The notes beneath the pieces are model-generated. The model saw nothing but the letters and a program-made list of their open reading frames with translations, made no database searches and was not told where the DNA came from. A stretch of 62,623 nt of DNA, counting the filler, from Platydemus manokwari (lineage: Eukaryota): assembly GCA_037951405.1 (NCBI GenBank). It is 6 parts of 6 records of this genome, joined end to end, with 100 filler letters (N's around TTAATTAATTAA, not from the genome) between each part and the next. Parts side by side here need not be neighbours in the genome. Positions count along the whole stretch, not along the records: positions 30,876 to 41,987 come from JBBMOY010813314.1; 5 more parts are not named here. The stretch is one strand, 5' to 3'. Each line of letters starts with the position of its first letter. Within the stretch, counting starts at the first letter, position 1. Of this stretch, positions 6,635 to 56,450 are shown piece after piece. The translations under genes were made by a program, and so were the position numbers.

Positions 6635-7712
6635 TGAAAATAAGATCAATAATTACTAATTCTTGTTTAAATCTGAATTATCAGAATTAATGTATTGAAT
6701 GTGTTTTGATCTTTACCCAATAATTACCATAAATGTTCAGTTCGCAAGATTTTATAATATTCACTGAAATTTTATGTTTAAATTCATATTAATAATTTTT
6801 TTGTACGTTCGAAACGAAAAAATCAATAGTTCATATAATTAGATAAATTTTCAACTGGCAAATCGAACTGTTTTATTTTATCATTTAAAATTAACTGGAT
6901 TTGAAAAGTTCGATGTAGATTAATGTAGTTTGATTTTTTTTGTGGTTGAAGAATCAGTAAAACATCGACACTGTCAATGAGGCAATTGAGAGCAATAGTA
7001 AAATTTTGTTATATATTAGTCAATTGTTGAGGTTGGAGATGAAATTTTTAATTATAAAAATGTACGGAATTTGTCAATTTATTTTAAGTAGTAATTAGTA
7101 AATCAAGAATAATGGTTATGATTAAACAAGGTTTAAATGATGTTTGTTAAGATTTATTGTTTAATTCTGATTAGTCAATTTATATTATTTTGGGTCAATT
7201 TGGATTACAGATTTTCATTGTATTTTTCTAGTTATAGATTTAATTTTAAAATATTTAGTTGATTTTATTTCTGATTCAAAGAAATGTTTTCAAAAGATCT
7301 TGAAATTAATTATTGGAAATATTAATAATTATATTAGATGAATGAGTATAAGATAATCAATGTAATAATGATAATCTTAAGGAACATCATTATTTTAAAT
7401 AACTCGGATCATTGATAATTTATGCACAGTAACGATCTCTTATCTTCGAACAAATCTGCTCTCGATATATTATTAATGGTCACTCAAGACGACTAAGGGA
7501 ACCTTACATTGAACTATGATCGAAAAAGTTTAACTCTTACTTTATTATTATGTTTGAGAAAACGATAGATTGTATAAACCGATGATAAACACCGCAATTA
7601 AACATTAAATATCAATTTTTTTATATTTTATATCCCGTGATTATTAATAATGAGCTTAACAAAAAATTTCACCAGTAAATTGCTGGATGAAATTTTTCTG
7701 AAAGGTGTTGAG

Positions 7713-7817
7713 CAGGGGTGACCAACTGGTCGATCTTGAAGCCAATTTTAGTCTATCGCGTGAGATATTATTCAAATGAAAAGTCGATCTTACGTACACA
7801 AAAGTTGGCCACCTCTG
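7713..7817. mobile_element. 105-bp hAT (Charlie/Buster-type) MITE
   Basis: TIRs CAGGGGTGACCAACT and AGTTGGCCACCTCTG (13/15 match). 8-bp TSD GTGTTGAG (7705-7712) / GTGTAGAG (7818-7825); the right copy fits the nnnTAnnn Buster target. Confidence 0.85.
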
Positions 7818-8959
7818 GTGTAGAGAATGAATAATAATATGGGTGCAAACAAAGTAATAATGTAGTTATTTTTTGTGATTTATTATTTATAATTATTCTT
7901 CCGAAACCGATGCTCTGGTCAAAACTTTTGCGTATTCCAATCATTCAGGCATTTTCAAAAGCTTGTAATATCTAACAACCAAACACGGTGATTGTATATC
8001 AAACTGTTAGTCTAATCAATCATTAACAGGGAGATGAGAATATTTATTTAATTGTGATACCTTGTTAACAAAGGGATCATCGTGGAGAAAATAAATCGAA
8101 AAACAATATCTATTAACAGCTTTGAAGTAGTTATTAAGATAACCAGTGTGTTGCTGGTCCGGAAATTAGATTGAAGAAAGATGATTGTGTTACAATACTT
8201 GAATATAAATATTTAGGCGAAATCCACAAAGAGACACAATTTAATTAGCACATAGAAAGAGCACTTAAATGGAGCTTAATTTGAGTCACGAATTGTACAC
8301 ACAATTGGAGAATATAAATTAACAAACGCTAGTTTAGACACACACGGCAATTCACAATATGGGAGTTCATTTTAACGGCACGAAATCAATTTTAAAAGAA
8401 ATTTAAACAAAACATTCTGTACTCATTTTTTGCACATCAAAATAAAGAACATTGAAATAAATACACATTAAATACATTTTTCATTATTCGGAGTAAAATT
8501 TTCATCGATTTTTAACGAATATGTGTTCTGTCTTACTTAATAAGCCATTACAACTTCATTAATAAAATCTGCACTATCTAAACCCTTATACCAGCAAGGG
8601 TACCTATTAAATATTGATTGATTCGATTTTGTCTTGATGGGAAATACATATCATATTAGCATATAAAATGAACTAATGCCAAGATTTATTAAGACATAAA
8701 TCAACAAAATTTAAAATGAGACCATCTATGAATTAAAGCCTTACAAAGTCATTTATAACAAACAAATAATCACTGATTGGCAGATGAAAACACTATCAAA
8801 AAAATGAACTATATTGTGAATAATATTACAAATAATACTATGAATTTCATAATATTATAAATTTTATTTAAAAGTTAGTGTTTAATATTGGGTCTATAAC
8901 TTAATAACCGGAATTTGACACCAGATGTAAACACTTGTGTGTGTGCTGTAGCAAATCAT

Positions 8960-9059
8960 NNNNNNNNNNNNNNNNNNNNNNNNNNNNNNNNNNNNNNNNN
9001 NNNTTAATTAATTAANNNNNNNNNNNNNNNNNNNNNNNNNNNNNNNNNNNNNNNNNNNN
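8960..9059. other. Artificial contig linker
   Basis: N44-TTAATTAATTAA-N44, giving stops in all six frames. Confidence 0.98.
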
Positions 9060-9640
9060 AATGAACAATATGTTCTCAAATCTTTATTCTACATGGCCTT
9101 CATTTTTTCTAAAGACATGTCTAGTCTTACTAAAATCAATGAAGTCAAGAATATAATATTTCTATAATTTGATATGGTCTATCATCATCAGAATTTTGTA
9201 GAGATATTTTTATTATTTCGGTAAAAAATAAATGGAAATCTTAATTACTGCTATTATAAAAATAATACAAAATTACGAACTTTTTAATTGATTCATTATT
9301 AATATTAAAATTATTAGATGGCATTACTACATTTTTTATTAAAATGATCATGATTCATTAAATTCATTTTTCACAAATCCAATCACCATTTTATTATGAG
9401 TTTTGAATTATAAATTATTCACTATAATAAATTAATGAATGGTGATTAATTTCAAAACAAAGCTGAAAAAATATCCGAAGCTCGAAACTGAATTAAATCT
9501 TTTTTTGATTATTTAATAAATTAGGGTCAAAATGTGAATTTGTTTAAATATTAATTAATGCTAATCTGAATTCTTGTTAAAAAAGCATATTCCTGAAATT
9601 CCTTATATCTAAAAAATATTATTAACTCTTGAATTTCCAT

Positions 9641-12475
9641 ATGATACCTCCATCATTTTCTGATTTGGGTAGGGCAGCAAAAGATCTTTTTGATAAAAAG
9701 TTCGCAGTTGGTCGTCTAAATTTTGAATGTTTTTCAAATAATGGTTCAAAAACTGTATCAATCGATGCGACATACAATAACAAGTCGAAGGCATTGACAG
9801 GAGATTTAGAAACAAAACATTTTATTTCTCCCGGTGAAATTTATTCTCAAAGATATTATGAATTATTGTCAACCAAATAGGAATCAGTATTATGCATAGA
9901 TGGTCCACGAAAAATGTCTTAACTACAGAAATTTCTAAAAATTATCAAAACACAAAAGGATTACGAAATGTCGCAATATTTAATTTTCAATCAGATACGG
10001 GGTATTTAATGATTTTGTGGCCGAAAATAATAAGTAATTTTGAATTATCAGAAAAAAGTCTTTCAGATCAAAGAATTCTTACAAACGAAACAATTTAAAT
10101 TTCAACGGCGACATTATTTTTGATTCATATAAGCCAGATATTAATTTAAATATGGTATTAGGGTATGCTTTGTTTTTTATGATATCATGGAAATAAAACA
10201 CTTATCTAGCAAGAAATAATTGATATGGGAATTATAATTTTAACTTTAATATTAAATCGATGAAAAAAATCAATTTTCATATCTATTAATTATTGTATTA
10301 AATTTCATTTGTATATTTAATCCTTTTCTTGCCTATACCGATATTTGTTTCATTTATTAATTTCATGCTGTTAAATTGGGATTCTCGAAAGTATTGTGGG
10401 TTGGATAGACATAAAACGTTGGTCAATTATAAAATCAACAATCGACTTGTCCATGGATAGTAATTTAGCAGGTCATTTGCTAAAGGAAAATTAATTGAAA
10501 ATATTTTGATGTCTTGCAAAACCAAATAAAATGTTGACAATGGTTGTAGTGGAGTATAATTGAAGAATTTTAATATTGATTTTTAATTGATAAATACTAT
10601 TACGAAAAAGATCAAATTAAAAAAAATTACTTGAATGCCAACCATCATTTAATCATCCAATTATTTACTTTGTGTAAATTAATAACGATACTAATAAATT
10701 TGTGCTCTTAATGTCATGACAACAATGACCTACTTTTACAATGGTTGAATTTCTCGACAAAGTAGAACAAATATTTAGTGAATACGAATTTGTGATTGAT
10801 GTGTAACATTTCCACTTGATTTTAAAATCAATAATTTTTTATTCATATTCTCATCATTATTAATGACGTGTTGATCATTTTTATTTATAAAATCAACAGT
10901 TAATTTGTCCATCCATTGTAATTTTCCAAGCCATTTTCTAAAGCAAAAATAATAGAAAATATCTAAATGTGTTGCAAAACACAATAAAATGTTGCCAATA
11001 ATTGGTAGTGCAATACAATAGAAGATTATTGATTTTTAGTTGATAAATACAATTACGAAAAGATCAAATTAGAAAAAATAATAAATACTTGAATGCCAAC
11101 CATCATTAAGATTATTGATTTTTATTTCTAATTTCATAATTCAATCTACCAATTATTTATTTTTGTGTAAATTAATAACGATAATAATGAATTTGTGCTC
11201 TTAATGTCATGGCAACAATGACCTACTTTCACAATGGTTTAATTTCTCGACAAAGTAGAACAAATATTTAGTGATTACGAATTTGTGATTGGTGTGTAAT
11301 ATTTCGATTTAAATCTAAAATTAATAATTTTTTATTCATATTCTCATCTTTATGTTTAACGTGTTGATCATTATTACTTTTTTAAAATGGAAAACGTAAT
11401 AATCACCATTGGAAATATATCTGGATTTAATATCATCTAAGCAATTATAAGAATTTTTTAAACAAATCTGACTAAATTTGATTGGCTTAATCGATGGTAA
11501 AAAGATTTTGTGTGATTTACAAGAAACAGAAAAATATTGACATTTTAAATTGGAATAATTATGGCTTGTGACAAAACTGTTTATAATCAAATGTGATTCT
11601 AAGATTATTATTTGGTTGTTTGTGATGTTAAGCTATTTTTTATTAACCCGACTTACTGTTTTTCTGGCTCGAATGAGGTGATATTAACCGTGTTCGATAG
11701 TTTATCCATCATATTATCTAGTGAATCGATAATAAACCAGTGACATCCGTATTTAGAATAACGAAATTAATAAAAATCAAACTAAGGACTGAGTATAGAG
11801 TTTTGATAGGGTTGAGTAAGACAAACTATTGGAAGAATTGTAACTAATTTATGAGCTATAAGTAGCGGTTCATATCATCAAAAGAGTTTCACATCATCAT
11901 TTGCTTATGAAATATTTTATTATAATTATTTTTTATTGAAGTAGACTGTTTAAAAAGTTTACAACGACCAATTATTTCTAGATCTGTTTATTTGAAATCT
12001 TATCTTGTTGGAGTTGATTGCAATATCGATGTTAACAATCGAACAATTCGTAATCATTCATTTGCTATCAGATATAAAAGTAAAAACATTGATTCTGTGA
12101 CAACCTTGAAAGATTTCTCATTGGTTAATATATACATTTATCAGAAGATTAACAACCGAACTGAAATCGGTGTTCATGTCGCATATGATAACAATTTCAA
12201 ACGGAATAAATTTGGTGTTGCTGGCAAATATAAGATTTCTCAATCGAATCATTCTTTTATCAAAGCCAAAATCAATCAAGATAAATTGATTAATTTAGCT
12301 TATGGTTGTAATATCAATGATAGTGAGTTTCTATCGTTGTGAAATGTGCGTATGTTGTATTAATGGCATTGTATCATGTTAAGGATTACAATTGACTTTA
12401 TCTACTGAAATCGATGGCCTCAATATCAATCGAGGATTACACAAATTTGGTGTTGGAATTTCTTACGAATTATAA
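9641..12475 (+). CDS. VDAC: Voltage-dependent anion channel (mitochondrial porin), ~285 aa, divergent
   Basis: Exons 9641-9833, 9881-10001, 10052-10162, 11982-12322, 12384-12475 total 858 nt in frame. N-terminal helix MIPPSFSDLGRAAKDLFDK; WST.N.LTTEI; DTGKKS..K.SYKR; KAKIN...LINLAY; C-terminus LTLSTEIDGLNINRGLHKFGVGISYEL*. Confidence 0.93.
10425..11372. repeat. Diverged tandem duplication of a ~460-bp unit in VDAC intron 3
   Basis: Copies at ~10425-10880 and ~10885-11372 share long blocks, e.g. TACTTGAATGCCAACCATCATT, TTTGTGCTCTTAATGTCATG(A/G)CAACAATGACCTACTTT and TTTCTCGACAAAGTAGAACAAATATTTAGTGA. Confidence 0.9.
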
Positions 12476-27000: not shown

Positions 27001-27564
27001 AAACAGTATCTTATAAAGTATAATAATAGACACAATTTTTCAGAATTTAGTTTTCAAATAATTCAATGAATAAATTAGACATTGATAATACTTTATTTAT
27101 TAAATGGATAAGATCATTTAAATTTATCAATTAATTAATTTAATTGATTTAATTAATGGAGTTATTCAAAATTTCGCATCGCATATATTAATCAACAATG
27201 ATTGGATAACAAATTTAATTTTTCTTATAGCGAGTTTAAATTGAACCAGTCTAAATTGACGAGTAATCATTTATCGTCAAAATACACACGATTAACTCGC
27301 TTCTGAAACGGACGTGCCTCGAGGACACGACGAGTAAGGAATATGCGATATCTAACAGTTTAACACGAACTGAACAACACACATGCACAACACACGCGAA
27401 TACTCGCCCGGTATTGTCGGTATACACACAATTATGCATTTGACGACATATTTAAAATAAAGATCTATTAGCGCACAAATTAATTGCCAACCGTATTCTA
27501 ACGACAATCATCAATAATTTGAAATTTATAATTATCAAAATTAAAAACATAATTATTTTAATCA

Positions 27565-30376
27565 ATGAATAATACCGATTCAAATCGTCAAGGAGTTTAT
27601 CTTCAGTCACAGTCTTCTCACCAACTCCTTGGATCATTTGAAAATCCAATTCTTAATACCCAACATATTAAAGAAGCCTCAACATCAGGTGTACAGGAAT
27701 TAAAATCTGAAATCCATTATTCATCAGAATTTTCGACAGATTATTTGCCAATAGTTACAGAAATGTATCCAACAAATTTTCTAACAAACTCATATGAACA
27801 TCAGCAATTCGTTAATCCATCGACATTTAATTACTTTAATTCCAATAAAAAGCTTTGTGGCATCTTATCATCAACAATGAACAATTTCACAGACTTGGAC
27901 AGAATTGATTATGCGAGAATTAACGAGATAAGTAATTTTGATCAATATTATCAACCTTATCAGAATCTAAAAATCGAACATCAGAGGGACAGTAATACAT
28001 TGAATCATTTTTCATCATTGTCTCGTCAGATAGATCTGGTAAATGCAGATTCGAATACCATTTCTCAATACATTCAGTCAACACAATCATTTAACAACCA
28101 AATGAACAACAATGCGGACAGTCGAAGCGCAATAAGTGCCAACAGTCCAAGTTGCTATGAAAACAGTGAGATAAAACCAAACGAATTACCTATAATTGTA
28201 TCAGCGCCATCACTATCCGAAGATTGTGAACTGAATGAAAAAACTGCTGCAAACAAGCGTGACGATATAGATTTCGACAGTAATCAAAGTGACTCTCCAA
28301 GAAAACCTATAAAAGAAGTGACACCCAGTCTAGAAACTGTTAATAATAAAGAAGATGAAATAAAAAAGGAAAAGTCAATTGAACGAGAAAGCGATGATAT
28401 TGATAGGATGAAATCAGAAAAATCTCTAAAATCATCAAGTAAAAAATTATTGAGTCTAAAACCTGTTTCAACCTTCATTTCAGCAGCGAAGCGTAAATCA
28501 GAAAAGCCAGAGCAGTCATATATTGCGTTAATAGTAATGGCCATTCAAGCTTCTCCAATCAGAAAATGCACTTTAAGTGAAATATATAATTATCTACAAC
28601 AGAATTTTCCTTTCTTTCAAGGTCCATATCAGGGCTGGAAAAATTCAGTCAGGCATAATCTTTCTTTAAATGAATGCTTCATAAAATTACCAAAAGGTAA
28701 GTTATACTAAATATAATATAAATTATGATTATAATCATTTGATTCGATTCTATCAATTTCCTGCTTGTATTTTTGTATTAAAATGACATTTAAAACATGA
28801 TATAATTCGAGCGGAAATACCGTTAGTTACAGTAATATTCAATCTACCATTATTATGTATAACTGTCTGAATTCATTGAACGGAAATTGCAACCAGTCAA
28901 CCATAATGGTCTTTGTTCGGCAATTTGCGATAACTAAGAAACATAAAGAAAATAATATTTGTACATTAAATTTTTTTTTAAGAAATCGAATAGAATAGCA
29001 CGATGCAATTTTATCAAACAGGAATCCATACCATATTCTGATCATATGAGAAATTCTATAAACTCATCAATATTCAATGCTACTCTAAGACAATTGATTA
29101 GCATAACCTTGTCCACACCTATTTTAGTATTCAATATTGTGATTTACTTTAATAACAATACACAAATGATAAAGCGTTCGTCGTCCAAAAATCAAATAAT
29201 ATTTAATATTTTAAATTGTTTATTTTACTTTTATTGAAATGTGCTTAATGGTTATGTAATAAAATACACATTTAATTTAATTTCATCATTAGGTATGGGA
29301 AGGCCGGGAAAAGGCCATTATTGGACTATAGATCCTACAGCTGAATTTATGTTTGAAGATGGAGGTAATAGAAGAAGGCCTAGAGGATTTAGAAGGAAAA
29401 TTTCAACCAGAAGTAACTCAGGATCAGCATTCTCCAAGTCGCCGTATACAGTAACGTCAGTGTCTTACAATAACAGTAGTCCAATGATGTTTTCACCATC
29501 TAATGTTCGCTGTAATCAATTAGGTAGTAATGTGTCTTCGTGCAATTCAATGAATAATCTGAACGGAACAGTAGCAGACAATATGCCTCCACTTTTTGAT
29601 ATGTATCATCAAAGTTTTGGGCTTTTTTCTCAGCCGGAAAACATTGATCCAATGAAAGCCGTTATATCGAACTACCCACAACATGATTCTGGATTTTTTA
29701 TAGATTCATTTTATCCTCACTCATCATCAGATTCCAGTTTTGGTAAACAAGAAATTCCAGCAGCTTCATCTCTATTCCATACTAACTTTATGTCTAATAC
29801 AATAAGTCAGACTTCTAATTCCTCGAGTATATCCCATCCACCTATATCGCCATATGTCTCAGGAAACTCTCGAAATAGCCCCTTATTCACTTCACTTTCT
29901 TCGTCATTACAAACTCAGAATATTACAGATTTAAAGATTTCTGATCAATCATCTTTTCATTCTCCACAATCATCAACTTCCTCCACAGCCGCAGCAGTTG
30001 CAGCTGCATCACTTTATTCAAATTGGTTTCCAAGTGGACCAACAGATGCAGCAAAATATTTCATGGATCATTCCTCAGAACCCGATAGAATAGACAATTT
30101 ATATTCCTCAAGCGCTTTGCCAAGATTATCCGTAGGTATTCATGGTGAAAATGATGAAATCATTGAAAGAAGTGAATTTTTTATTTTATTTTGATATTGA
30201 ATATTTAAAACATTCAAACAGATCCTATGTATCAACCATACATGACAGATTGTCTTTTACCTTACCTACCATCAAGTCAAATGTTTAATATAGCAAACAT
30301 GACAGATGTTCGCTCCAACAGTGGTTTAAATATGGACAACACTGACAGATCCATTTGGGTTCACAATAAATTTTGA
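27565..30376 (+). CDS. foxF: Forkhead box F transcription factor, ~721 aa
   Basis: Exons 27565-28696, 29293-30171, 30222-30376 (2166 nt, in frame). The forkhead domain [49 protein letters not shown]|[33 protein letters not shown] is diagnostic of FoxF. Confidence 0.95.
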
Positions 30377-30875: not shown

Positions 30876-33332
30876 TGGATTTTAACAGATTATCACATAA
30901 TTAAAAGCAGAAATATATTTAAAAATAATAAGAAAATTGATAGCAGATTAAACATCTCTGAACATTCAATATCAAAATTAATAAATCATAGATTATGATG
31001 TGCTTCAAATTATCAATATTAATGATTGGTCAACTAACAACCAATTATAATATAAATAAATATTATTGTAATTAATAATAAAAATAATTATTATTATCAA
31101 GTAATAATGTTGGATTTTACATTCATTTTATTAAATAATTTCTTGCTGAAAGTCCATTTTTAAAATTACCAAACTCTAAAATTATTATATTGTACTCGTT
31201 AATATATTTTATGTTTTTTGGTTTAAATTGAGAAATATATCTTTGATCTGATTTATAAATTATTCTATTGGCAATTGCATCTCACATCTCTTATTTTGAT
31301 GATCCTTTATCTGTTCAAGATTATTGCTTAAACGTGATTCGTCTTAATTGTTATGTCTGTCTGCAATTCTTTTACAATATTGGCAATTTTCTCTTTATCA
31401 CTTAAAATTTTCGGCCTGCAACAATTTGCATGTTTGGATCTGGATTACTTCCACCTCATATTCTTAAAAATCAGTGAAATCAGTTGTTTTAAATCTTATT
31501 TATTAAACAAAAAAGTCAACTTGTTACTTTAGTATCAATGCTTTGTTCAGTCAATAATACAAAATCAATTGAGTATCACTAGTGCTATCAAGGTTGACTC
31601 ATATTAATGCTCTCATTACTTGCATTTCTGATTCATTAGATATAGTAATAAGCAAATCAGTTTGACATCACCACTCAGTAAAATTCAATTGCGACAAATG
31701 TTAGTACGTATCATCGTGCAGCATTTGATGCCGACAAGAAAATATGTTATCTCAGATTACTCTCGATTTAAAAATTCCTTGTGAAACGAGAGATATTGTA
31801 ATCAAAGAAAGGGAATGAATATTCTCGTCAAGGCTTACAAATAAATTTTAAAAAGTGTAAGACCAGTTATTTTAGTAATGGTGAAAGTGGTTGCTGACCT
31901 CTGAAATTTGAGATAACCAAAGAGTAAATACTGATTATAGTGCTGCCATAACTTGCTGCAAGATTTTGAAGTTTTTATTAATAATAATTTTTCTATTTAT
32001 TTAGCTAATATAATCTTTGAGAACATTAAAACAAATTAACGATGTCTTGAATGAGAAACTGCGTAATGATTTTAAAATTATCAGCGATTTTTTCATTGGT
32101 TTAAGAAGAAATTCTATTTTTAGAAACCACACTTAATCCCGAATTTGTGAGCTTAATTTTCAAAGCTAATTTTTCAGTTCGTTAAATCAAACATTTACAA
32201 AGGGGATATTGATAAACTTAAAACGAAACCTGATGTAATGTTCACTTATTGAGACTATTAGAAACTATTATCAATACCGATATAGTATAATTATTGATAA
32301 GCGATGATAACAATAAAAGCGAATAGGAAATGCAGAATTCAAGCAGACTTTAGTGAAAAATGTTGAATATTTAACGTAGATTACCAGATAATTTTGGAAT
32401 TCTTTTAAAGTATGAAGATATGTACATATTATTAACGGATTTGTTGTTCAAAACATCGATGATATCTTGATAATAATAAAAGACAATTTATTCAATATAA
32501 TCATTCTAATATCCAGTCATATTTACCATTAAAATTTAGATCAAATAATTTGGAAATTTGAAAGATTTCCTTGATGAATTGAGATTTATTTCGACTTCAG
32601 TCACTACATCAATTTTACTCAGAATCTCAATGGTATTGAAAATTCGTATTGTGAGGATATCAAATTGAATTTATATTGAATTTGAATTTATATTCAATTT
32701 AGTTGATATTAAATTTAATTTGATATTAAATATTATTTATTTTGTTTAAATAATTGTCTTTAAATAGAATCGAATGTCGAGTTTTTTACAGTTCGTTTTC
32801 GATGCGTTCCTTTAAATAGTAGCGGCTTACACGTATAATCAAGGATATTGATTACTTATAGACGAAGCACTTAAAATTTGAATTATTTGAGTGATTCAAT
32901 TGATTATTGTGGATTTGGAAAAGCAACAGGTATGGAAATGAGGCCAGTTAATATTGTAAAGGAACCCCGTAAAATAAATAAGGGAATGAAAATGAGATTA
33001 CTATGATTACAATCATTAAAAGTATAAAAAGATGTGTTCCTCAGTCAGATATTGAACTATTAATATCCAGTATCATTTGAAATAATCAGAAAAGTCGCTC
33101 ACAGAAACTATTTAACTAATTTATTACGTTCAACTTGATTTCGGTTGTATGGCTTATCAAATTATAGATGTTCAGTATAAAAATTTAATAGGTTGATAAC
33201 GTAATATTTTGAAAATCTAATTGATAAGTAAATAGCTACTCATTATGATATACTTCCGTTTGTGAGAAATAAGAAAAACGTTTAAAATATTATCTTTATT
33301 TAATATTACAAGTGAAAGAACACTTCCTCACA

Positions 33333-34249: not shown

Positions 34250-35250
34250 GAAAAAGACCATTTGATACTTTGTAAACTATCAGAACAGTTACAGAAATGT
34301 CTTAGAAACTTACAATAGCACAACTTTTAAATTAATTAATGTTCTGCTTCAGTACTCATTTTGCATGTGCCTAACAAGCTGCTAGAATTACATGTGGCAT
34401 TGATAAACGGAAATTTCTTCTTTCCGCAAAAATCTTGTCAAATATATCATCCTCAAAAGAAAAAATTGTTTTGTTTTACTTTATAAGTTTTTCAATATTT
34501 ACACAATGCTCACAACTTTTAGATCACTCATTCAATAAAACCTTACGTGACCTGAAATTTAATCTTGAAATTTTTGATTCATTTGATCTCATATTGAAAT
34601 CGGATTCATTAAATAGAGATAAATCTTATCCATCAGTTTTGATTTTATTTGTATTTTCCGTCATCGAAGATTTCTCTGGTAGACATTAGGGATGGCTTTT
34701 TATTCCTCAATCATTTAATTCATCTGAATATAAAACTTTCTGATTCTCTAATTGTAATTGTTTTTCATCTAAAAAGTTTAGGAGAAGCTTTTGATTAGAA
34801 ACCTGTACTTTGATTAAAATCCTGTAATGTCCAAAAATCGATGTTATATGCGAAGTATAGCTTTCATTTAAATGTTTCTAAAAATAATTAAAATAACATT
34901 CAATTCTCAGTACAGAATTTATTGATATTTCTAGATTCTCTTTCATAATTTAATTTGAGATCATTACAATATTGGTACTTTACTGTGATAAATATGTGCG
35001 TGTATGTGTTTAAGTCTGAATATATTTTTTGAAACTTTGCGAAAAATAAATATCAATACTATTTCTGGAAATACTTGATCTAGAAATAGCGTGAATTATT
35101 TTCAAGAGTCCACCTATTTTCAAATTGTGAAGATGTGGAAAATTTTCTTTCATCAACTAAAGAATACACCGAAGCAATGCAAATTCCTGAAAATTTGTAT
35201 GGCAAATTTCCATTAAGGGTTTTTCTAAACGATTTAAATTACACTAGCAA
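34250..35250 (-). pseudogene. Possible decayed spliced host gene or pseudogene next to the non-LTR insertion
   Basis: One minus-strand frame reads protein-like (NRLEKPLMEICHTNFQEFALLRCIL*..KHLNESYTSHITSIFGHYRILIK|MKKQLQLENQK..FEDDIFDKIFAERRNFRLSMPHVILAAC*) with intron-like gaps but about a dozen in-frame stops. Confidence 0.25.
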
Positions 35251-35304
35251 TTTATCTTGCCGAGATTCTTTGGATTAGAATTGCTCGTTTTTCCGTATCG
35301 ATAG

Positions 35305-36775
35305 TTAAACTCTCATATTGTAGTCGTTGTAGATATCTGATTGTATGCTCTTGATCAAGATAAGGATTTCACTTTTCGTTGTTCCATGTGGGTATTGTTT
35401 ATCACGAAAGCATCTTTCAGTAGAGTGCTGATGAGGAACCCAGCGATGACGGTGATCTGTAGCTTGTCTAGACTGATGTTGGCAAGCATTTTGTTGTTTA
35501 TAGGGTTCCAAGATTCAAGAAATTTAATACAGAGTACATCCAGTGTTGTTTCATACCTGTTTTTATTTTGATTTTTGCCGCTATTGTTCCATATTTTTCA
35601 AAGATCAGGAACCGATGTTTCTCAAAGATATCAACCGGGATCTTCATGTCGATGATATAGGTATGTATCTTGGCTTTATTCTTAATGATGAGATCCGGTA
35701 GCAATCTTGTATTTAGTTTTGGTGGGCTTGTATGAATATCGTTATCCAGTCCGGATGATAGTAAGCAGTTTCCTAAGTGGTTCAAATTGATTGAGTGTCT
35801 TTTTGTATCCAGTCCAGGTACCGCTGGACAGTGGATGAATTTGTGGCATCGTGGGTATAAGATTGATTTCTTTTTCTTCATGAAATACAGTGTGTAATTC
35901 AGTAATAATAGGTTGTTTTTGGCCAGATTCGTGAAAATCCAGATATCTTGTGAAAATTTTTTTGCAAGAGATGACTGGGTGAGAAGCAGTGAACCATTTA
36001 TTCTTGTTTTTTCTTGATGCAATATTCCATGAGGGACGTTTTGAATCCGATGCCGCCAGGTTTGGTAGTTCCATTTTTAGTATTTCTTTCGAGATATTCG
36101 ACGCATTTCTTGTCGAATGATTGTACTGATTCATTTTTATGGTTTGAGATCAGTTTTGTTGAATCCAGTTTGCTAATTTGTAATTGTTGAATTCGGAAGT
36201 GGAAAGGCAATCTCGAGTGCAGAAAAATACTGTAAGCCTGGAATTTTTATGAAGGATACAGTCTGAAGGCTGTGATCGCTTCAAAGTCTGTGATGATTGA
36301 TTCCAGGATGTGGTTGACCGGTGATCGATTGAGTAGACCAAAGGGCACTCCGAGATTGTCACTATCCATGATTTAGATGTGTTGATTTTGAGTAGAATGT
36401 CCGTTGCTTTATGAATAGGTTGATTCAGTCTGTTTTCGAAGTTCTTTTCAGAATTAGCAATGTTAACGATATAATAAATGCAGGCTGTGTTGAGAATTGA
36501 ATATCACACATTATGAGAGCCCCCGGCATACTGGCTGAGAAGCGTAGGAGAGAATCAATTGACAGGTAGAAGAGTGTCATTGACAAGGGGCATCTTTGTT
36601 TTACTCCGTGGTGGATTGGAATTGGTGGTGTGTTAAGCATTCCACAGGTATAAGTTCATTCGGAGTCCTGGTATATGGCATTGATCATTTCAATGTAATG
36701 AGTATTGTAACCCATTTTGTTAAGCGTATACTAGATAACCTCGTGTGGTAGGCTTGTGGAAGGCTTTTATGAATG
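35305..36775 (-). mobile_element. 5'-truncated, degenerate non-LTR retrotransposon with RT and REL endonuclease (R2/NeSL/R4 group)
   Basis: RT motifs KAF..LPHEVI..MGY..INAIYQ..GVKQRCPLSMTLF (GVKQGCPLS). The C-terminus has C..HC...KRH..., RLLPDLII, IIDMKIP and EKY, the RH/PD/D..P/KY signature of REL. Multiple frameshifts. Confidence 0.85.
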
Positions 36776-37512
36776 AATATGTGAAAATTATGTGAAATAT
36801 GTCGAACACAAATAAATACAGGAACCACGACAAGAATGCCAATACAGCCAATAGATATAATTCCAAAACCAATGGAATTCACAGCAATGGATATTATGGG
36901 ACCATTCCCAGAAACGACCCAAGGAAATCGATATAATTTAGTATTTTGTGATTATTTCACGCGTTGGCCAGAAGCTTTTGCGATGTCAAACCATAAGGCA
37001 GCAACGATTGCCCAGATATTCGTGGAAGAGATAGTGTTCCGGTATGGAGCACCGAGGATAATACTGACAGATAGAGGGAAGGATTTCCTGACCAATATAA
37101 TTGCGGAGATCTGTAAAATTTTCCTCGTAATGAAGTTGAATACCTTGCCATATAGACCTCAAACAGATGGCCTGGTAGAAAGATTCAATAACACTTTGAG
37201 AAATATGTTAGCTTCTTTTACGAGCACAAATCAGGGTAGGGGATCGGGTATTAGTAGATACCCCTCAACCGGTAAAAGGACTCTCTCCAAAATTGCAGAA
37301 TACATTTAAAGGACCGTACACTGTGGAGAAAGTGACGCCTACTAATTTACAATTAAAAAGAAAAGGACCGGCTGGACCATTGATAGTCCATGCAAATAGA
37401 TGTAAGCGAGTAACAGTAGTAGAACCGAGCCAACATGCGCTACGTTCCAGGACAAGAACAGTAGCAACAGTAAATACCGGAAAAGGAATGAAGTTACACA
37501 AATGGATTTTGA

Positions 37513-38268
37513 ATGCCATTGTGTATATTAGCATTGATACTAACTAAGGAAGCGAAAAAGGATGTAGAGAATCCGAAAATGCCCGAATTCTACTTCGAAA
37601 TAGAGGCACAGAGAATCACGGTGCATTGTGATTGCGACAATGATCCGCTTGTGTCAATGGCCTTATTAATAAGAGGAGGAAATAGAGCCGAAGTTTATCT
37701 AGGAAAACTTAGGAATAAGGTTTCATTTAATATATTAAGATCGTCATGAGTTTACTGGTTTGAAGCAATGGTTTCAAGCGAAAGTAACCGTAGGCGGAAA
37801 ACTAGACAGAATACAGAGTGAAAACAAGGTGCAAACGCGCACCAGTAAAGATAAAGAAAACTTAATCTGGATTATGGAACCCAGAGAGAAATTACACAGT
37901 GCAGATTCATATGGGGAATATTGCACAGACGTTGGATGAGAAAAACAGGAGATATGACATGACACTGGAAGAAAGGAGACCCATAAAAGCTCATATAAGC
38001 TATAATCGGTGGAATAGAGTCAGCTAAATTTTGTATCGATCAATACGAGGAAGTAGAGATAACAGCACCAGGATTTAGTTTCAAACCCATTAAGAAAATG
38101 AAAGGATCTTTAAGATCTGTAGAACAATTAATGATGATAGGATTTGCAATGATAATCATTGTAATCCTGATATTAGTAGTAATGTTATTATCAAGAATGA
38201 TAATCAGCTACCGACAGCAACAAATGACATTAAACAGAGACAGGAGAACCTATGATACTAGATGTTAA
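37513..38268 (+). pseudogene. env-like type I membrane protein of the Gypsy element (frameshifted)
   Basis: Hydrophobic leader (KWIL/MPLCILALILTKEA), a Cys-containing ectodomain, a 21-aa transmembrane (TM) segment LMMIGFAMIIIVILILVVMLL (38128-38190), a basic tail, and a stop at 38266-38268. Confidence 0.6.
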
Positions 38269-38345
38269 AAGTACAGTATATAGTGTATATGCTGTATATT
38301 GTAAAGTATAAAGTACAGTACATAGTGTATCTACTGTATAAAGTA
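38268..38345. repeat. ~43-bp direct repeat pair between the env-like ORF and the accessory ORF
   Basis: AAAGTACAGTATATAGTGTATATGCTGTATA... / AAAGTACAGTACATAGTGTATCTACTGTATA... Confidence 0.7.
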
Positions 38346-38408
38346 AATTGTTTAAGTGTTTTTGTAAAACAAGTATTAACTAGTATTAATGAGTATTTAT
38401 ATTTTAGT

Positions 38409-39533
38409 ATGAGCCACAAACTCACAGAAACGAATGAAAATACCATGCCAAAGAGAAAAGGAATGTCGGTAAAGAAGACGGTAAAAGCCCGGATCTTTTA
38501 TGATAGAATAGAAGCCTTTATGAATGTAAACCATTGGAGGCAGATCAATATTACAAGGGTACAAGATAGACCCAATTGCCTCAGAGAAAAAGCGGTTGAA
38601 AATAGAAGAATGTTCCTAAGAGCAGAACCGCAGGAAGGCGAATTACCAATAAAAGGACTGATAGAGGACCAAGAAGAGATCGAGATCGATAACGTCCTCA
38701 CAGCAATTTGGATTATCGAACACCTCAACATGGCCTAATCGAAGAAACTGTTCAAGGAAGGACAGATTAACTGTTGGCCGAAGAGGAAGTAAATTAATTA
38801 TTGAGGGGAACAATAGTTATCGATCATAGAGTATGGGAAGGACTGATAGCTCTGAGAATTACTCCTGGTGACTTATATGAAGTGAGAGAATTATCAAATG
38901 CCCCAGTATTTGGAAAAGATGGCGTGAAGAGGAGTAACGGGAGATTCACCCTCCAAAGATCATCGAGCCATTATGTCAACTATGAGTTCCCAAGGAAGTT
39001 AAAAATCTACCTCGCCATAGAACCCAGGTGGACGGATCATAAGGAAGCAAGAGACGAAAGAAAATATGAGGAGGAAACCAACGTGAGAATCCCGTCCAAG
39101 AAAATAGAGCAACCAACGAAGAAAAAGTAGACTGGGAAAATTCAGACATTGTTATCCAAGGATAATCGGAGGAATCAAGAAGAGCCCATACCATCCACAA
39201 GAAGAGGGTCAGGAGAATGCCAACCCTCCACCAGTAAAAGGATCAAGTCGGAAGAAATAGATATAAACGAGGAAATGCTATGGGACACTCCAGACTCTGT
39301 AGAGATTCTGGATGAGGATGCACTATAATGGAAATACACAGAGGTCTTAACTTGGACAACCCAGAGTTAAAGGTCAAATACGAATAGCATACTTGCGCAG
39401 AGGAGGAAGTGGAGAAGTAATTTATCCCGGAAGACGAGGAGATGCCACTACAGGAACCCCAACCAGAAAGAAGCAGAGATAACAGAGAGGATACAGTTAT
39501 CGGGATTATACCCACGCAGGCTGCAGGCCTATA
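38409..39533 (+). pseudogene. Accessory ORF of the Gypsy element (~375 codons, disrupted), function unknown
   Basis: ATG at 38409 (MSHKLTETNENTMPKRKG..) continues through ORF pieces 38262..38738 and 38801..39130 and an acidic tail (..EDEEMPLQEPQPERSRDNREDTVIGIIPTQAAGL*). Same A-rich coding-strand bias as the pol gene. Confidence 0.55.
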
Positions 39534-39589
39534 AATTATAAATTGCATAATAATTATATAATAATAATAAATTAAAACAGGAAACCCAC

Positions 39590-40330
39590 ATTAATTAAAA
39601 CTTAGGCGTCTCGGCTCAATGATATTAATAATAACTGTAAATTTTTTTGGAAAACTGATTAAAAATCATTATTAATCCACGTTGCCATAGCCATCCGAAA
39701 TATAGTCATAGAAATTCAAATTTAAATGCAAATTGCCATGACAACGATGGATATTACTAAGAGAACCTCAAAATCAGAAATAAAATTAATCATGCGCCTA
39801 CATTCCAAATTCATATAAATACTGAAGTAAAATTCAGTATTTTGCCACAAAACTACGTAGTTCATAACGATTACAGATCCACTTCGAGATCATATTCGAG
39901 ATTATAAATTAAGATTTGAGATTACAATTCAGATTACAAATCAAATTCAAGACAACATTCGCAGCCAACTCAAGTAATAAACTAATTTCAGCAATTTCTA
40001 GTATCTGGCGACAATTGTTTACCTACTATTAAGCTCAATTATTAATTCAAAATGGTAAAAGTTCATTATTATTTTGCTCACCTGATATCATTCTCCGAGG
40101 AGATTTATTGTCAGTGAACATTAAAACCCTCACAAAATCGTAACAGAGTTTGTGAGTCTAAAATCAATACTTCTTTAGTTTATATACCGCAGTGGGGCGC
40201 CACTTAGTTCCCGCCGGCGGTTGTTATTTACTGATAAATCTTTAGGGCACAACAGCTTACTCCTTCTAACTTACAGCATAACACATTTGATAATATTTAT
40301 TATAATAAAGTATTTTGTTATTACATTATT
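39590..40330 (+). mobile_element. LTR-like non-coding segment (boundaries uncertain)
   Basis: X-box-like motifs at 39681-39694 and 39732-39745, TATAAATA at 39814-39821, short GAGATTA-type repeats, and AATAAA at 39976-39981, in U3-R-U5 order. Confidence 0.4.
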
Positions 40331-40896
40331 GTTCTTATTAATATTTATATAACTCATTTACACGCAACCTATTAATCTGTGAAGTTTCAGATATTGGTGG
40401 AAACACCAATCTCTGACTCACGGAAGCTCATTTAATTACATAGTAAATTATCGGTTGAAAAATCGTTGATTCACTATTAACTTACCACCAAACAAGTTTC
40501 CATCACAATCCCTCGAAGAAAAAATTGAAGAATTGGAACGCAAAGTGTTAGTAATTCCGGGAACCTCTAAGAAGATTCAAGCAAGCTCCGAAAAGAAAAG
40601 GTAATGGAAAGAAGCAAAGACGGAATTCGACCTCAGCGAAGACCCTCACCAACAAATTCAGGAAGATGGAGAAATATTTCAATTAGGCTATTTAGCCTTT
40701 TTCTGCAACAGAACAGGAGAAGACGTATCAAGAGGAAGAAGAAATGAGCGCGGAAATGATACCAGATAGACATTGTATTATAATTCTGATATTGATTATG
40801 ATTTTCATGGTGAATTAATAAATTTTGTAGTAGTATTTTGTAGTTTTATTTTATTGTTTTTAAAATTAGAAAATCTCAAATGTTTGAGAGGGCCAA

Positions 40897-41948
40897 TGAA
40901 GAGTCCACATTGTAAAAATATTAAAATAAAGATAAAAGTAAATAGCTAAGGAAAAAAGATAAGTTTAAAGATAGAGAAAATAAAATTTATTTTACTTAAA
41001 ATAAATAATAAAGTGGAAAAACTAATTTTAAAATTAAATTATTGATAAGAAAAATAATTATTTGAATAAATAAAGAAAATAAGGAATCTTAAATTATTAT
41101 TAGTAAATGGTAATTTGTTTAAATGAATTAAATAATTATTTAAGAAGGCAATTTTCCAAGAAAGTAATTATCGATCAATATCTGGTGACATTGATCCAAA
41201 TGTAGGAGTTGACTATACATGTCAACTCGGGTTAGAGAAATATGCTGCAAGTGGTGCGAGCACAATAACAGTATTTAAAGGCGGACTTGTGGTGAAAAAC
41301 TCACAATTAACTGGAACCAAAGCACAAGCCAGACAGAAGAGAATTTTGCAGTCAGAACAGAAACTAAGAAAATTGTCTCAGTCAGAACAGGATTTCCGAA
41401 CAAATTTTCAAAAGAAGAGAATTTCAAGATTAATTTCAATCAGATCGAGATTTAGAAGCAAGAAGTTACCAGATTTAGAATTCAGACAAAATTTACGTCA
41501 CGGTGAAAAGAAACAGTTACTAGGAGCAGGTTATATTTTTATTAATATTGAGTATTCGTGGACAGTGCTTCCTGAATATCGGTATTAGTATAAAGTAATT
41601 GTATAGAGCGTCTGTAATCCGTTACGCACGCTGGTATTTTGTAGTATCGGCAAGGAGTAGTTCCTTGGCCAGTAATCCAATATGGTGAAAAAGACTAAAT
41701 CCGTATTTGTAAACAGAACTTTATTGGGAGCTAGGCCCTTGGTGTAACTAATCAAAGTTGTAAATATAGTTATAGAAATATAACGTAGTGTGCAACTTTG
41801 TTTTGATTTTGGAGTTAGGTTATTACGAGGATTGATGAGCTCCACACTCGGTTGACCCAACAAAAAAATAATTGGTAGCAAAATTGATATAATGATTGGG
41901 GCTTTTTTGAGCATAATGATTAATAATAGAGAATGCTCGCTCGTTACA
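40897..41948 (+). mobile_element. Probable 3' LTR (~1.05 kb)
   Basis: Purine tract GAGAGGG at 40886-40892, then TG (40897; alternative start TGTAA at 40911). TATTTAAAG at ~41272, internal short repeats (CAGTCAGAACAG x2), and the end ...CTCGTTACA at 41948. Confidence 0.45.
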
Positions 41949-52789: not shown

Positions 52790-53117
52790 TATTCATGAGC
52801 AAAAGAAAAAAGTTTTTAAAAGCTGAGGAAGTTGAAGCGTTTGAATATTATTTTGAGAATGGTCAAAGAATTCCTAAAAATATTTCGTTTGATAAAGAAT
52901 CCTTTATTAAAAGTAAATATTTTAAAAGGTTTTTTTGACAAAAATAGTATTATTTTATATCTTGCAGAAAATAAAAGAAAAGTTGTATTTGCTGAAAGAT
53001 TTATTAGAACTTTGAAACATATTATGTGGAAACATTTTACAACTTTTGGACATAAAGATGGGATAATATTTTATTATAAAGTATAGTTAATAAATATAAT
53101 AATAAAATTCATTCTAG
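52790..53117 (+). pseudogene. Polinton/Maverick c-integrase fragment
   Basis: RIPKNI.FDK, then ENKRKVVFAERFIRTLKHIMWKHFT and VNKYNNKIHSS, typical of Maverick integrases (KA..VERFNRTLK..MWKYFT..YNN..HS). Confidence 0.75.
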
Positions 53118-55375
53118 TTGTTCAGAAGGAAGGCCACTCCGGTGGACTTTTATTTTAAAAAGGTAGATAAAGTGGTGAAAGACATATTGTCTCACAACAT
53201 AACTAAAGATGAGCTAACTGTTTTCCTCTTGGTGCATTGTGTAGATGATGCGGAGTTAGAAAAAGAAATTAAAATGAAGGATATTGAGGAAGTGGATCAA
53301 ATAGAGAAAACCGTAAAAAAGCTAGATGGAGTAAGAAATAAAGAAAGAGAAGTAAACACGATGGGAGCAGGAAAATGGACCACGATAGTAAGGAAAAGTA
53401 GATCATAGGTCATGATATAATTGCAAAATACCAGAGCATATAGCACGAAATTGTAAAAGCGAGAAAGCAGTAACGTGCTACGTCTGGCACCGAGTAGGTC
53501 ACATGGCGATATATTGCACAAATGTCATAAAGTGCAGCAGATGTCAATACCAAGGACATCACGAGAGTGCATGTTATACGAATCTAGAGAAAGAGGGACA
53601 ACAAAGGTCAAAATACAAGCAAGGGACATCAATAATCCAGCAAAGGTTTGATCACAGACAGAATACCACTAGAATAAATGAAAACAGACAGAATTTCAAC
53701 GGGAAAAATTACTGAATGGTGAGCCGAAGTAATAGACAAGTAGCTGCAGTCAACCAAGAATAGGATTCAGAATACAACGAAGAACACCCAAAAGAGAATG
53801 TGCCGAATCCCGGAGAGTGGGTCGGGGCAATACGCTAAACAATAAATCTAAGTCTAAGCAAGATAACGAGAGTTTTTAACGATATTTTTAATATAAGTAA
53901 TTTAAATAAAATAAACAAAATAAAAACTAAAATAAACAAGTAAGGCAGTCCCCAGAACATGAAAAACTGGAAAGTAGAAAAACAAATTGTAACCGGTAAC
54001 AATGATGATATAGAATCAGGAAAGAGTGTACAATGTAAAGTTTAATAGAAAGAGTAAATGTCATGGATAAGACGATATTAGAGACACTGAAACAAGTAGA
54101 AATCAAATATACAAGTGAAAATTTACGATGCGCCAACGACAGTAGATTAGAGGTTCTTGGTAGAATAAGAATAAAAGTCAAGTTAGGAAGTCAGTCCAAG
54201 ATGATATCATTCATAATAGTTGAGCACATGAAACTGAAGATTATAGCGGAATAGAATTTCAAGAAGAATTTGGATAAGAGTTACAATGGAAAAAGAACTC
54301 TCAGCACAAAGAAACAGAATTAAACACCTCTATCTGTGAGATAACATCGAGATTTGGTAGGAGTATAATCGATGAAGATAGATTCAAGAAACCAAAAGAA
54401 TATCTTGCGATGAAAGAAGAATCTCGTTCATGGGGGATATTAAAAGCGAATAGTAACGTATTCATGGCAGATTATTGGAACATCGGTTGTACAAAGTTAG
54501 TAAAACATAAGATTGTAACAAATGGTAGTCTCAATCAGCAAATTTTGAAGGAAAGATATAAGAGGCAATCAAGAATTTAAGAGAAAACAACATTATAAGA
54601 AAATGCAATTCATCGTGGAATACGCCACTTGTATGTATATGGAAAATAGATAGAAAGGATATAAAATTATACCTTGATTTGCGACTTTTCTCATGCCAAA
54701 TATAGAAGACCTATTAGACACTTTACATGGCTCTAAGTATTTCACTTCGGTAGACTTAGGAAATGCATATTATCAGTTAGAGCTTCACAAAGAATAACAA
54801 GACAAAACGCCATTCTCGACGAAAGATGAGCAATACTGTTTCACACGGATGCCGTTTGAAATGGCAGTAGCACCAGGAACATTTCAAGAATTGATGACAA
54901 AAATATTATGGGATAAGAAAGAAAAAGGAGCCATTGTATATTTGGACGACATATTAATATTCTCAAAAATGATAGAAGAACACTAAAAAATACTGGAAGA
55001 AGTAATGAAAAGAATAGGAAATGCAGGACTGCGCATTAATCTAGAAAAATGTAAAATAATAAGAAAAGAAATTAAGTTCCTGGGTCATATCATAAATGAA
55101 GAAGGTATTAAGATAGACCCAAGTAAGATTAAAGTAATAGAAAAATTTGAAAGACCAAAATGTATAAACAACCTACGAAGTTATAAGTCTGTGTTAAGTA
55201 TGCCAAAAAAATAAAGTGACAACAACAAAAACGAAGGAAGAACCAAAGTCAATGCAAACGAGAGAGCCGTTCGAGAAAATATATATATCGACATTTGCGG
55301 ATTGTTAAAAGAAACAAATATAGGAGAAAAATATATACTGACGATAATTGACCAGTTCAGTAGATACATAGTACA
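53118..55375 (+). mobile_element. Degenerate Gypsy element: gag with three CCHC knuckles, protease region, RT, then deletion-fused integrase fragment
   Basis: Knuckles NCKIPEHIARNC, CYVWHRVGHMAIYC and CSRCQYQGHHESAC. RT motifs SSWNTPLVC, YFTSVDLGNAYYQL, RMPF...APGTFQ, IVYLDDILIFS and KFLGHII. Integrase motif PFEKIYIDICG..KYILTIIDQFSRY. Confidence 0.9.
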
Positions 55376-55559
55376 CCCATAAATAAATATTTGTATTTAT
55401 AAAATGATCTTGTTCAAAACATCACCGTAATTTCTCAATTTAAAAAAATACTTTTTAAAAATAATTTTATATAAAATTAAAAATTTAAAAATAATGTTTC
55501 TTGCATTTGTGTTTACGTGATCCTTTTCACTATCGTCTAGCTGTTCCATGGTAGCACAA

Positions 55560-56450
55560 ACGGCAAGTTCAATTGCATCTGTGTGACATCGATGAGTGTG
55601 AAATATATAAGTCTTTGAAAGATTTCTGGAGTTCCCATTAAACCGAATGTTAATAAGCTAAATTAAAATAACCCATCATTATTAACAAGCGCTGTTTTAC
55701 ACTTATCTTGCTCCTTAATTTCAAATTACCAATATCTTATGTTTAAAACAATAGTTAAAAATATCTGAATTTTTTGATAATTTTCTTTTTTGTGGCAGAA
55801 GTAATAGATTTATATCTTTTCTAGTGACTACATTTAATTTTCGATAGTCAATACACCATCAAATGCTACCATCTTTCATTTTACCAATACAACTGAGAAT
55901 ATTCATGAGAAAAAAATTATTAAAACATTATTCTCAACTATTTTTGTTTCTATCTTCTATTCTTTTCCAAAAAGAAATAAGGTAAGGTCTCATCTCACGC
56001 ATTCTCCCTTGATCTCAATAAAATTGGATTCTTTTAGGAACGTCAAATTACAGTTCTTCTAAATCATTTTATAAGCTAAACTGATTCCCCAATCTGCCAT
56101 CTTTTGTGTTATGAGTTATTAAATGGTTGTGTTTGCATTTGTAAAGTCAATTCATTAAATACACTTTCCCTTTGTCATATTTCTATTAAATGCTCTTCCA
56201 TTACTACAGCTTTATCAACAATTCGTACGGTAAATTTATATGACTCTCTCTTTCACTCCCCACTAGTTTCTACATATCATCTGACCAAAATCAGTTCTCT
56301 CATTGTGTAATCTCTTTTCGCACTCAGTTTGATTTTTATTATTGATCAATTCAATTTCATTAGCTTGTTTGTTCTCTTTAATAAAAGCGTCTTTTGAAAC
56401 TTCATTTTCATTAAAAATATCATCACCTTATTGAAATGACAAATTAAATC
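55560..56450 (-). mobile_element. Second degenerate Gypsy remnant in the opposite orientation
   Basis: The minus strand reads VVLVK/KDGSI*WCIDYRKLNVVTRKD (~55900-55810) and EQDKCKTAL...GLF*F..LTFGLMGTPEIFQRL (~55715-55610). The upstream boundary is approximate. Confidence 0.7.

Follow-up and report, generated by a model that had tools for sequence, protein, structure and literature searches.

A probable ISG20/REX4-derived accessory gene in a decayed gypsy-type LTR element of Platydemus manokwari

ORF3, the third open reading frame of a retroelement in the genome of Platydemus manokwari, is what decay has left of a real accessory gene, one under purifying selection. It was found in the window, by which we mean the whole 62,623-nt stretch of DNA that was analysed. 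The interpretation that we favour, with about even confidence, is that a multi-copy gypsy-type LTR element carried ORF3 as an accessory gene, that the middle part of ORF3 came from an ISG20/REX4-type nuclease, and that its product was likely catalytically dead but able to bind RNA, the message being probably a subgenomic RNA with its joint at an acceptor-like site before the start codon.

Organization of the ORF3 locus

The most upstream recognizable part of the element was a broken gypsy-type integrase core with a GPY/F C-terminal part (36785..37547, + strand; Pfam rve, E 9e-11), and the 5' part of pol was missing from this copy. ORF2, a broken membrane-protein region continuing from pol, was read by translation at 37490..38268 (+), with a signal-like start, a C-terminal transmembrane helix at about 38130-38200 and a stop codon at 38266-38268. 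A 140-nt spacer (38269..38408, +) separates this stop from the ORF3 ATG at 38409, exactly as an earlier, sequence-only reading had given it. No paired LTRs and no clear polypurine tract were found within the window; everything upstream of the integrase has been replaced by another decayed element, so that neither an LTR pair nor a splice donor could be located. A decayed fragment resembling a non-LTR element was present at 35100-36770 (- strand), where the 5' part of the element's pol would be; it had no Pfam match and contains what we take to be a restriction-like endonuclease motif.

The 100 N-terminal codons of ORF3 (38409..38708, +) comprise a variable start, a basic cluster and a domain without known family, and they end at the point of an internal deletion (38708). 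This 100-aa region had no match in Pfam or to the ORF-A family of the relative L014 described below. It is followed by an ISG20/REX4-like DEDDh exonuclease-like domain, from its DYRT motif on (38708..39046, +), and by a charged, probably disordered tail (39047..39534, +) that contains several stops and one frame change. Eight stops precede the end of ORF3 (38736, 38768, 38795, 39128, 39326, 39368, 39385, and 39418); that at 38736 is out of frame after the break, and the remaining seven lie in the reading path.

Most of what the sequence-only reading had said of this ORF stood, with some corrections. All the peptides that it quoted were present in the translation. The span of about 375 codons was reproduced, but it is spread over three frames, the last of which ends at 39534, and the deletion at 38708 means that ORF3 of the family was longer. 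Of the NLS-like start MPKRKG, the basic residues held up among the copies, with silent or Arg/Lys-type changes only, but the Met and Pro vary. The tail, which had been called acidic and disordered, is charged and probably disordered, and acidic in its last part only (17 D/E vs 7 K/R in 67 codons).

Affiliation of the element and gene order in a close relative

The integrase shared 53-62% identity with its 12 closest sequences, all gypsy pol proteins, and grouped with them in a 13-row clade (support 99/96); the tree comprised 64 of the 113 eligible rows, and the window sequence had a long branch in it. Assignment to Ty3/gypsy follows from a gypsy-type integrase with a GPY/F tail that groups with RT-RNase H-integrase polyproteins. 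In seven close relatives, a membrane protein consisting of an ectodomain and a transmembrane helix is fused after the integrase; a profile of these pol-fused ectodomains gave no sequence match to ORF2, and the likeness is in layout alone. One member (P0134, a cluster mate of P0014) encodes a single gag-env-pol-membrane ORF of 3735 aa with a class III-type fusion domain, in which env stands in frame between gag and pol (PF24664, E 1e-91); the corresponding part is missing from the window copy. Ankyrin repeats were identified in another clade relative (P0012). Pol continues in frame into a type I membrane protein in P0008, P0010-P0012, P0014-P0016, and P0134; this protein has repeated cysteine-containing modules, which are reminiscent of fibronectin type III repeats and had no Pfam match. 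Another gypsy-clade member with 60% integrase identity (L094, JBOFCV010000293.1) is filed under a Turicibacter MAG and is probably misbinned animal DNA. No close relatives were found in a viral contig collection.

Among 154 loci that were fetched, an ORF3-like sequence was present in L014 only, a close relative with long downstream sequence. In this relative (L014:3-11518), the polyprotein (2368-aa-plus) contains protease, RT, RNase H, integrase, extra protease-like domains, ankyrin repeats, a signal, an ectodomain, and a transmembrane segment. Three accessory ORFs lie downstream of the polyprotein: ORF-A (7283-8743), dead and ISG20-like; ORF-B (9043-10374), an intact-looking DEDDh exonuclease (RNase_T, E 1.5e-11); and ORF-C (10924-end), with a weak ubiquitin/SUMO-like match. 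Their order and layout are the same as in the window element which, together with the selection described below, bears out the earlier claim that ORF3 is an accessory gene of the same retroelement family.

Spacer, acceptor-like site and expression of ORF3

The spacer contains a tandem duplication with copies at 38268-38305 and 38310-38347, which are 87% identical and match at 33 of 38 positions; no more than 26 positions matched when the spacer was shuffled 200 times. A duplicated unit of ~43 bp had been proposed; the duplication is real, and the unit measures 38 nt at a 42-nt spacing. The spacer ends in TTTATATTTTAG|T ATG, with AG at 38406-38407, so the acceptor-like site noted previously does stand 1 nt before the ATG. 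It is the sole TTT[T/C]AG on the + strand of 36785-39533 (the 2.75-kb element body); in the window the word is common (145 sites on both strands, 1.16 per kb), and TTTTAG.ATG occurs four times in 125 kb (both strands of the window). Copies of the family were taken from one public DNA run (X1), and neither the AG nor the ORF3 ATG had a variant among the 40 of 49 differences listed for them. No joint or loose end fell at 38408 among those listed from this DNA run (6 of 34 loose ends). A match to Rfam in the spacer (C0719; 22.5 bits vs a cut-off of 50) was dismissed as chance.

The acceptor-like site recurs ahead of accessory start codons in L014, a relative with 59% integrase identity: TTTTAG is found 0 nt before the ATG of ORF-B and 1 nt before that of ORF-C, these being the only two such words on its + strand, and the spacers of the two ORFs contain tandem duplications of 89 and 62 nt, respectively. 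Both features are missing from ORF-A, the dead paralogue: no AG immediately precedes its ATG, and its spacer contains no tandem duplication. From these signals, the ORF3 message was probably spliced at the acceptor before its ATG.

The same gene and protein could have been expressed by another route, which we consider possible but rather unlikely: the acceptor might serve spliced-leader trans-splicing, or the tandem repeats might form an internal promoter, and the accessory ORFs would then be expressed like an operon. An AG 0-1 nt before the ATG in three of the four accessory ORFs (ORF3 and the three of L014) is consistent with this arrangement, as are the short AT-rich spacer ahead of each of them, with tandem duplications in three, and the AATAAA words downstream of ORF3, at 39566. 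Spliced leaders are used by flatworms, and an LTR donor is described as able to take over a trans-splice acceptor (PMC4558846). Against this route, spliced messages are described as the usual means by which the ORF3s of LTR elements are expressed (PMC5408684).

Origin of the middle domain

The sequence-only reading had called the ORF3 protein unknown. Its middle part can now be linked, by two two-step chains of homology, to the DEDDh exonuclease family (PF00929) and more narrowly to ISG20/REX4-like enzymes; no direct match to a named nuclease was significant. The motifs are called ExoI to ExoIII here, and the family REX4. Against 1.84 billion protein representatives, the sole match to the ORF3 middle was P0129 (E 2.5e-5; 34% identity over 124 columns, with the whole piece aligned), which itself matches ISG20 (E 2.3e-4). 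The second chain runs through the L014 ORF-A family, which comprises, besides its own record, four relatives at 42-73% identity: ORF3 was aligned to it by hhalign (86.5%, E 4.6e-6), and its profile reached ISG20L2 (E 9e-5) and, in the Atlas, RNase_T clusters (0.94-0.95). When the window was cut into 840 six-frame pieces and searched with a profile that was built from L014-type relatives and excluded P0129, ORF3 ranked first (E 1e-7) and the next piece reached E 1e-3. A profile match near 31660-31920 (E 1e-3) was regarded as background.

Single-step searches with the ORF3 middle were weaker. In the PDB (177,635 sequences), ISG20L2 (E 0.37) and ISG20 (E 0.66) were the top two of five matches, at values that are not significant, and the two best matches among all fetched loci were L014 ORF-A and ORF-B, with weak E-values of 0.11 and 0.30. 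A 110-aa piece of the middle part had no match in Pfam or the Atlas; it gave 130 pattern matches in metagenome contigs, none of them confirmed, and 78 candidates in a word-indexed protein search, none at E<=0.01. A structure model of the truncated domain was unusable (mean pLDDT 48). All matches were to DEDDh or RNase_T proteins, and an RNase D-like DEDDy domain was not found in ORF3.

ORF3 is homologous to the cellular DEDDh exonucleases ISG20, ISG20L2, and plant SDN1 (PDB 1wlj, 7yw5, 5z9x) in the regions of the DYRT motif, of ExoII and of the C-terminal helix. It differs from them in its identity of only ~20-30%, its missing catalytic residues, its extra N- and C-terminal regions, and its location in a retroelement. 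L014 ORF-B is much closer to these enzymes (E 1e-13 to 3e-11 against SDN1, ISG20L2, and ISG20).

Loss of catalytic residues

The ExoII Asp is absent from ORF3, where Gly is found, and from all six of the nearest relatives (P0129 and P0124-P0128), where Gln is found; the Gly was read in the window copy alone and may be private to it. This shared absence makes a pseudonuclease likely. No ExoIII His was present in ORF3, in a region 13 residues shorter than in P0129 and possibly damaged in this copy. The alignment of ORF3 starts at about ISG20 residue 50, which indicates that the deletion removed the ExoI region; the ExoI Asp-x-Glu, lost with it from the window copy, is replaced in all five ORF-A members. 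L014 ORF-B retains D-x-E, D, H, and D, with Asp at ExoII. Judged by the residues that can be read, the ORF3 family protein is likely a pseudonuclease, and the presence in L014 of an intact-looking paralogue beside a dead one suggests that the gene was duplicated once captured and that cutting gave way to binding.

It is unlikely that ORF3 of the family was instead an active exonuclease with rearranged catalytic residues, which would trim RNA or DNA intermediates of the element or destroy silencing triggers in the manner of the arenavirus exonuclease. A Glu that adjoins the ExoII position in both ORF3 and P0129 could point in this direction, as could the complete residue set of ORF-B in the same clade and an ExoI that is unreadable in the window copy. 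These observations are set against the lack of the ExoII Asp in ORF3 and its relatives, the lack of the ExoIII His, and the replacement of ExoI in the ORF-A members. Still less probable is a decoy that has ceased to act on RNA and binds proteins instead, for example one competing with a host REX4/ISG20-like enzyme or with silencing factors for partners. The lost catalytic residues, the long N- and C-terminal additions and a short acidic C-terminal motif conserved in the ORF-A family would suit such a role, but the dead DEDD domains of Maelstrom and EXD1 are described as retaining RNA binding (PMC5408684).

Purifying selection on the ORF3 frame

The run provided 129 contigs on 38330-38830, of which 101 were <95% identical. 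For the selection test, a modest one that uses related copies from one run, 33 rows were scored out of the 40 of 49 listed, 5 spacer rows and 2 stop-codon rows being left out, and the expected silent count was obtained by placing the same base changes at random sites. In the ORF3 frame, 17 of the 33 differences were silent vs 9.5 expected (P=0.004), so that the purifying-selection check proposed in the earlier reading came out in favour of a coding sequence. The excess was stronger after codon 25 (10/14 silent vs 4.0 expected, P=0.0007), a split that was chosen post hoc. Four of the other five frames had no silent excess, and the reverse frame sharing third positions had a weaker one (P=0.05). 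Rows in which the window copy differs from nearly all other copies look neutral (3/9 silent), as expected for decay after insertion. Four of the seven reading-path stops differ in 97-100% of the other copies' depth; the other three had no row in the listed tables.

Loose ends flank 38708, with 7 contigs before it (median 72-112 letters) and 10 behind it, and the other copies thus carry sequence that the window copy lacks, which explains the first frame change of ORF3 in this copy. Contigs bridge the spacer and ORF3, and others bridge the end of ORF2 and the spacer (joints 38218-38219). That the ORF3 segment is an unrelated nested element or a chance ORF is hardly credible: no single contig of the run spans integrase to ORF3, and the window copy is interrupted by other repeats, but frame-specific purifying selection, the bridging contigs, and homologous ORFs at the same place in L014 all speak against it.

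Other features of the window

The window is AT-rich animal DNA. It contains a host forkhead gene at 27562-30194 (+ strand; Pfam Forkhead, E 1e-26), which is interrupted by an intron whose acceptor is AT-rich, and homeobox-like exons at 5288-6473. A further remnant of gypsy gag and RT lies at 53100-55900, where pieces of RT occur on both strands. The gaps at 8960, 21101, 30776, 41988, and 51670 all read N44-TTAATTAATTAA-N44 and are linker.

Downstream of ORF3, decayed ORF-like frames without a Pfam match were observed at 40380-40769 (+) and 41136-41900 (+), and both recur in run X1. Either additional accessory ORFs or a different element may be represented here. The 40380-40769 frame stands behind a second acceptor-like site, TTTCAG at 40385. 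The segment at 40177-40354 has imperfect inverted ends and is a candidate terminal repeat. The highest summed contig depth in the run, which was not taken as copy number, was at 39690-39930 and 40177-40400.

Comparison with known systems

The nearest known parallel is provided by the bdelloid LTR retrotransposons Juno and Vesta, whose ORF3 is described as a DEDDy exonuclease with intact catalytic residues and a function that is untested (Rodriguez et al., 2017, PMC5408684). As in Juno and Vesta, a gene of a 3'-5' exonuclease family follows pol in a gypsy-type element. Their ORF3, as described, is RNase D-like and of the DEDDy type, whereas the present ORF3 is ISG20/REX4-like and of the DEDDh type, would represent a separate capture, and lacks the catalytic residues that can be read; moreover, L014, unlike those elements as described, has at least three accessory ORFs in succession, two of which are an intact and a dead paralogue. 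Exonuclease ORF3s of the DEDDy type in rotifer LTR elements were thus already known, and the capture of an ISG20/REX4-type DEDDh gene is what would be new. In the literature searched, no ISG20/REX4-type gene is reported from an LTR element; supplements, Repbase, and the original Burro paper might annotate one.

Burro elements of planarians are described as giant gypsy elements that have ankyrin repeats and accessory ORFs and in which env lies between gag and pol (PMC6431247), and GAG-ENV-POL errantiviruses are described from Nematoda, Bryozoa, and Platyhelminthes (PMC13524379). Relatives in the present clade resemble these groups in an in-frame env (P0134), ankyrin repeats (P0012), and accessory ORFs, one of them weakly ubiquitin/SUMO-like, Burro being compared by description only. 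They differ from both groups as described there in the exonuclease and in the pol-fused membrane protein (PMC6431247, PMC13524379). Neither "exonuclease" nor "DEDD" occurs in the main text of the errantivirus paper (PMC13524379).

For the role proposed for ORF3, the model is CERV, the accessory protein of C. elegans Cer1, which is described as an RNA-export factor made from a spliced mRNA and acting on element RNA in the nucleus (PMC10309623); the likeness is one of role alone, and nothing in that description links CERV to a nuclease fold. Elsewhere, DEDD-family domains have been turned to RNA binding in silencing (Maelstrom, EXD1) or captured by a virus against host defence, as in the arenavirus nucleoprotein, whose exonuclease is active and serves immune suppression (PMC5408684, PMC7968707). 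In contrast to ORF3, Maelstrom and EXD1 are host genes, the arenavirus enzyme is a gene of an RNA virus, and all three belong to other DEDD branches.

Proposed role and implications

If the acceptor is used, ORF3 would become the first ORF on a short mRNA, and the simplest route would be cis-splicing from the 5' leader. The basic N-terminal cluster may carry the protein to the nucleus. The dead nuclease fold would bind RNA 3' ends without cutting them, and the bound protein might then shield or escort element RNA against host exonucleases and small-RNA silencing. The sequence-only reading had proposed a complex-retrovirus-like regulatory or anti-silencing protein made from a spliced subgenomic RNA, a proposal that is supported in part. 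A wider account, which we offer tentatively and regard as rather unlikely, is that an undescribed clade of envelope-bearing invertebrate retroelements captured and duplicated a REX4/ISG20-type nuclease, one copy of which became a dead decoy protecting element RNA from host decay and small-RNA silencing, and that the accessory genes are arranged like an operon with an acceptor at each start codon.

Among the accessory proteins of non-vertebrate LTR elements, few have been given a fold or a role, and ORF3 would add one. Gypsy-type elements would then have captured a 3'-5' exonuclease on two independent occasions, in this case from the DEDDh ISG20/REX4 branch. The plan of the clade is also unusual: gag, env and pol share a frame, the integrase is followed by a fused membrane protein, and several ORFs further downstream have their start codons at acceptor-like sites. 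The pair of an intact and a dead paralogue in a natural relative makes the role of retroelement exonucleases, in RNA processing or in counter-defence, directly testable and, should the nuclease-capture account prove true, the captured family would be one that includes a vertebrate antiviral enzyme.
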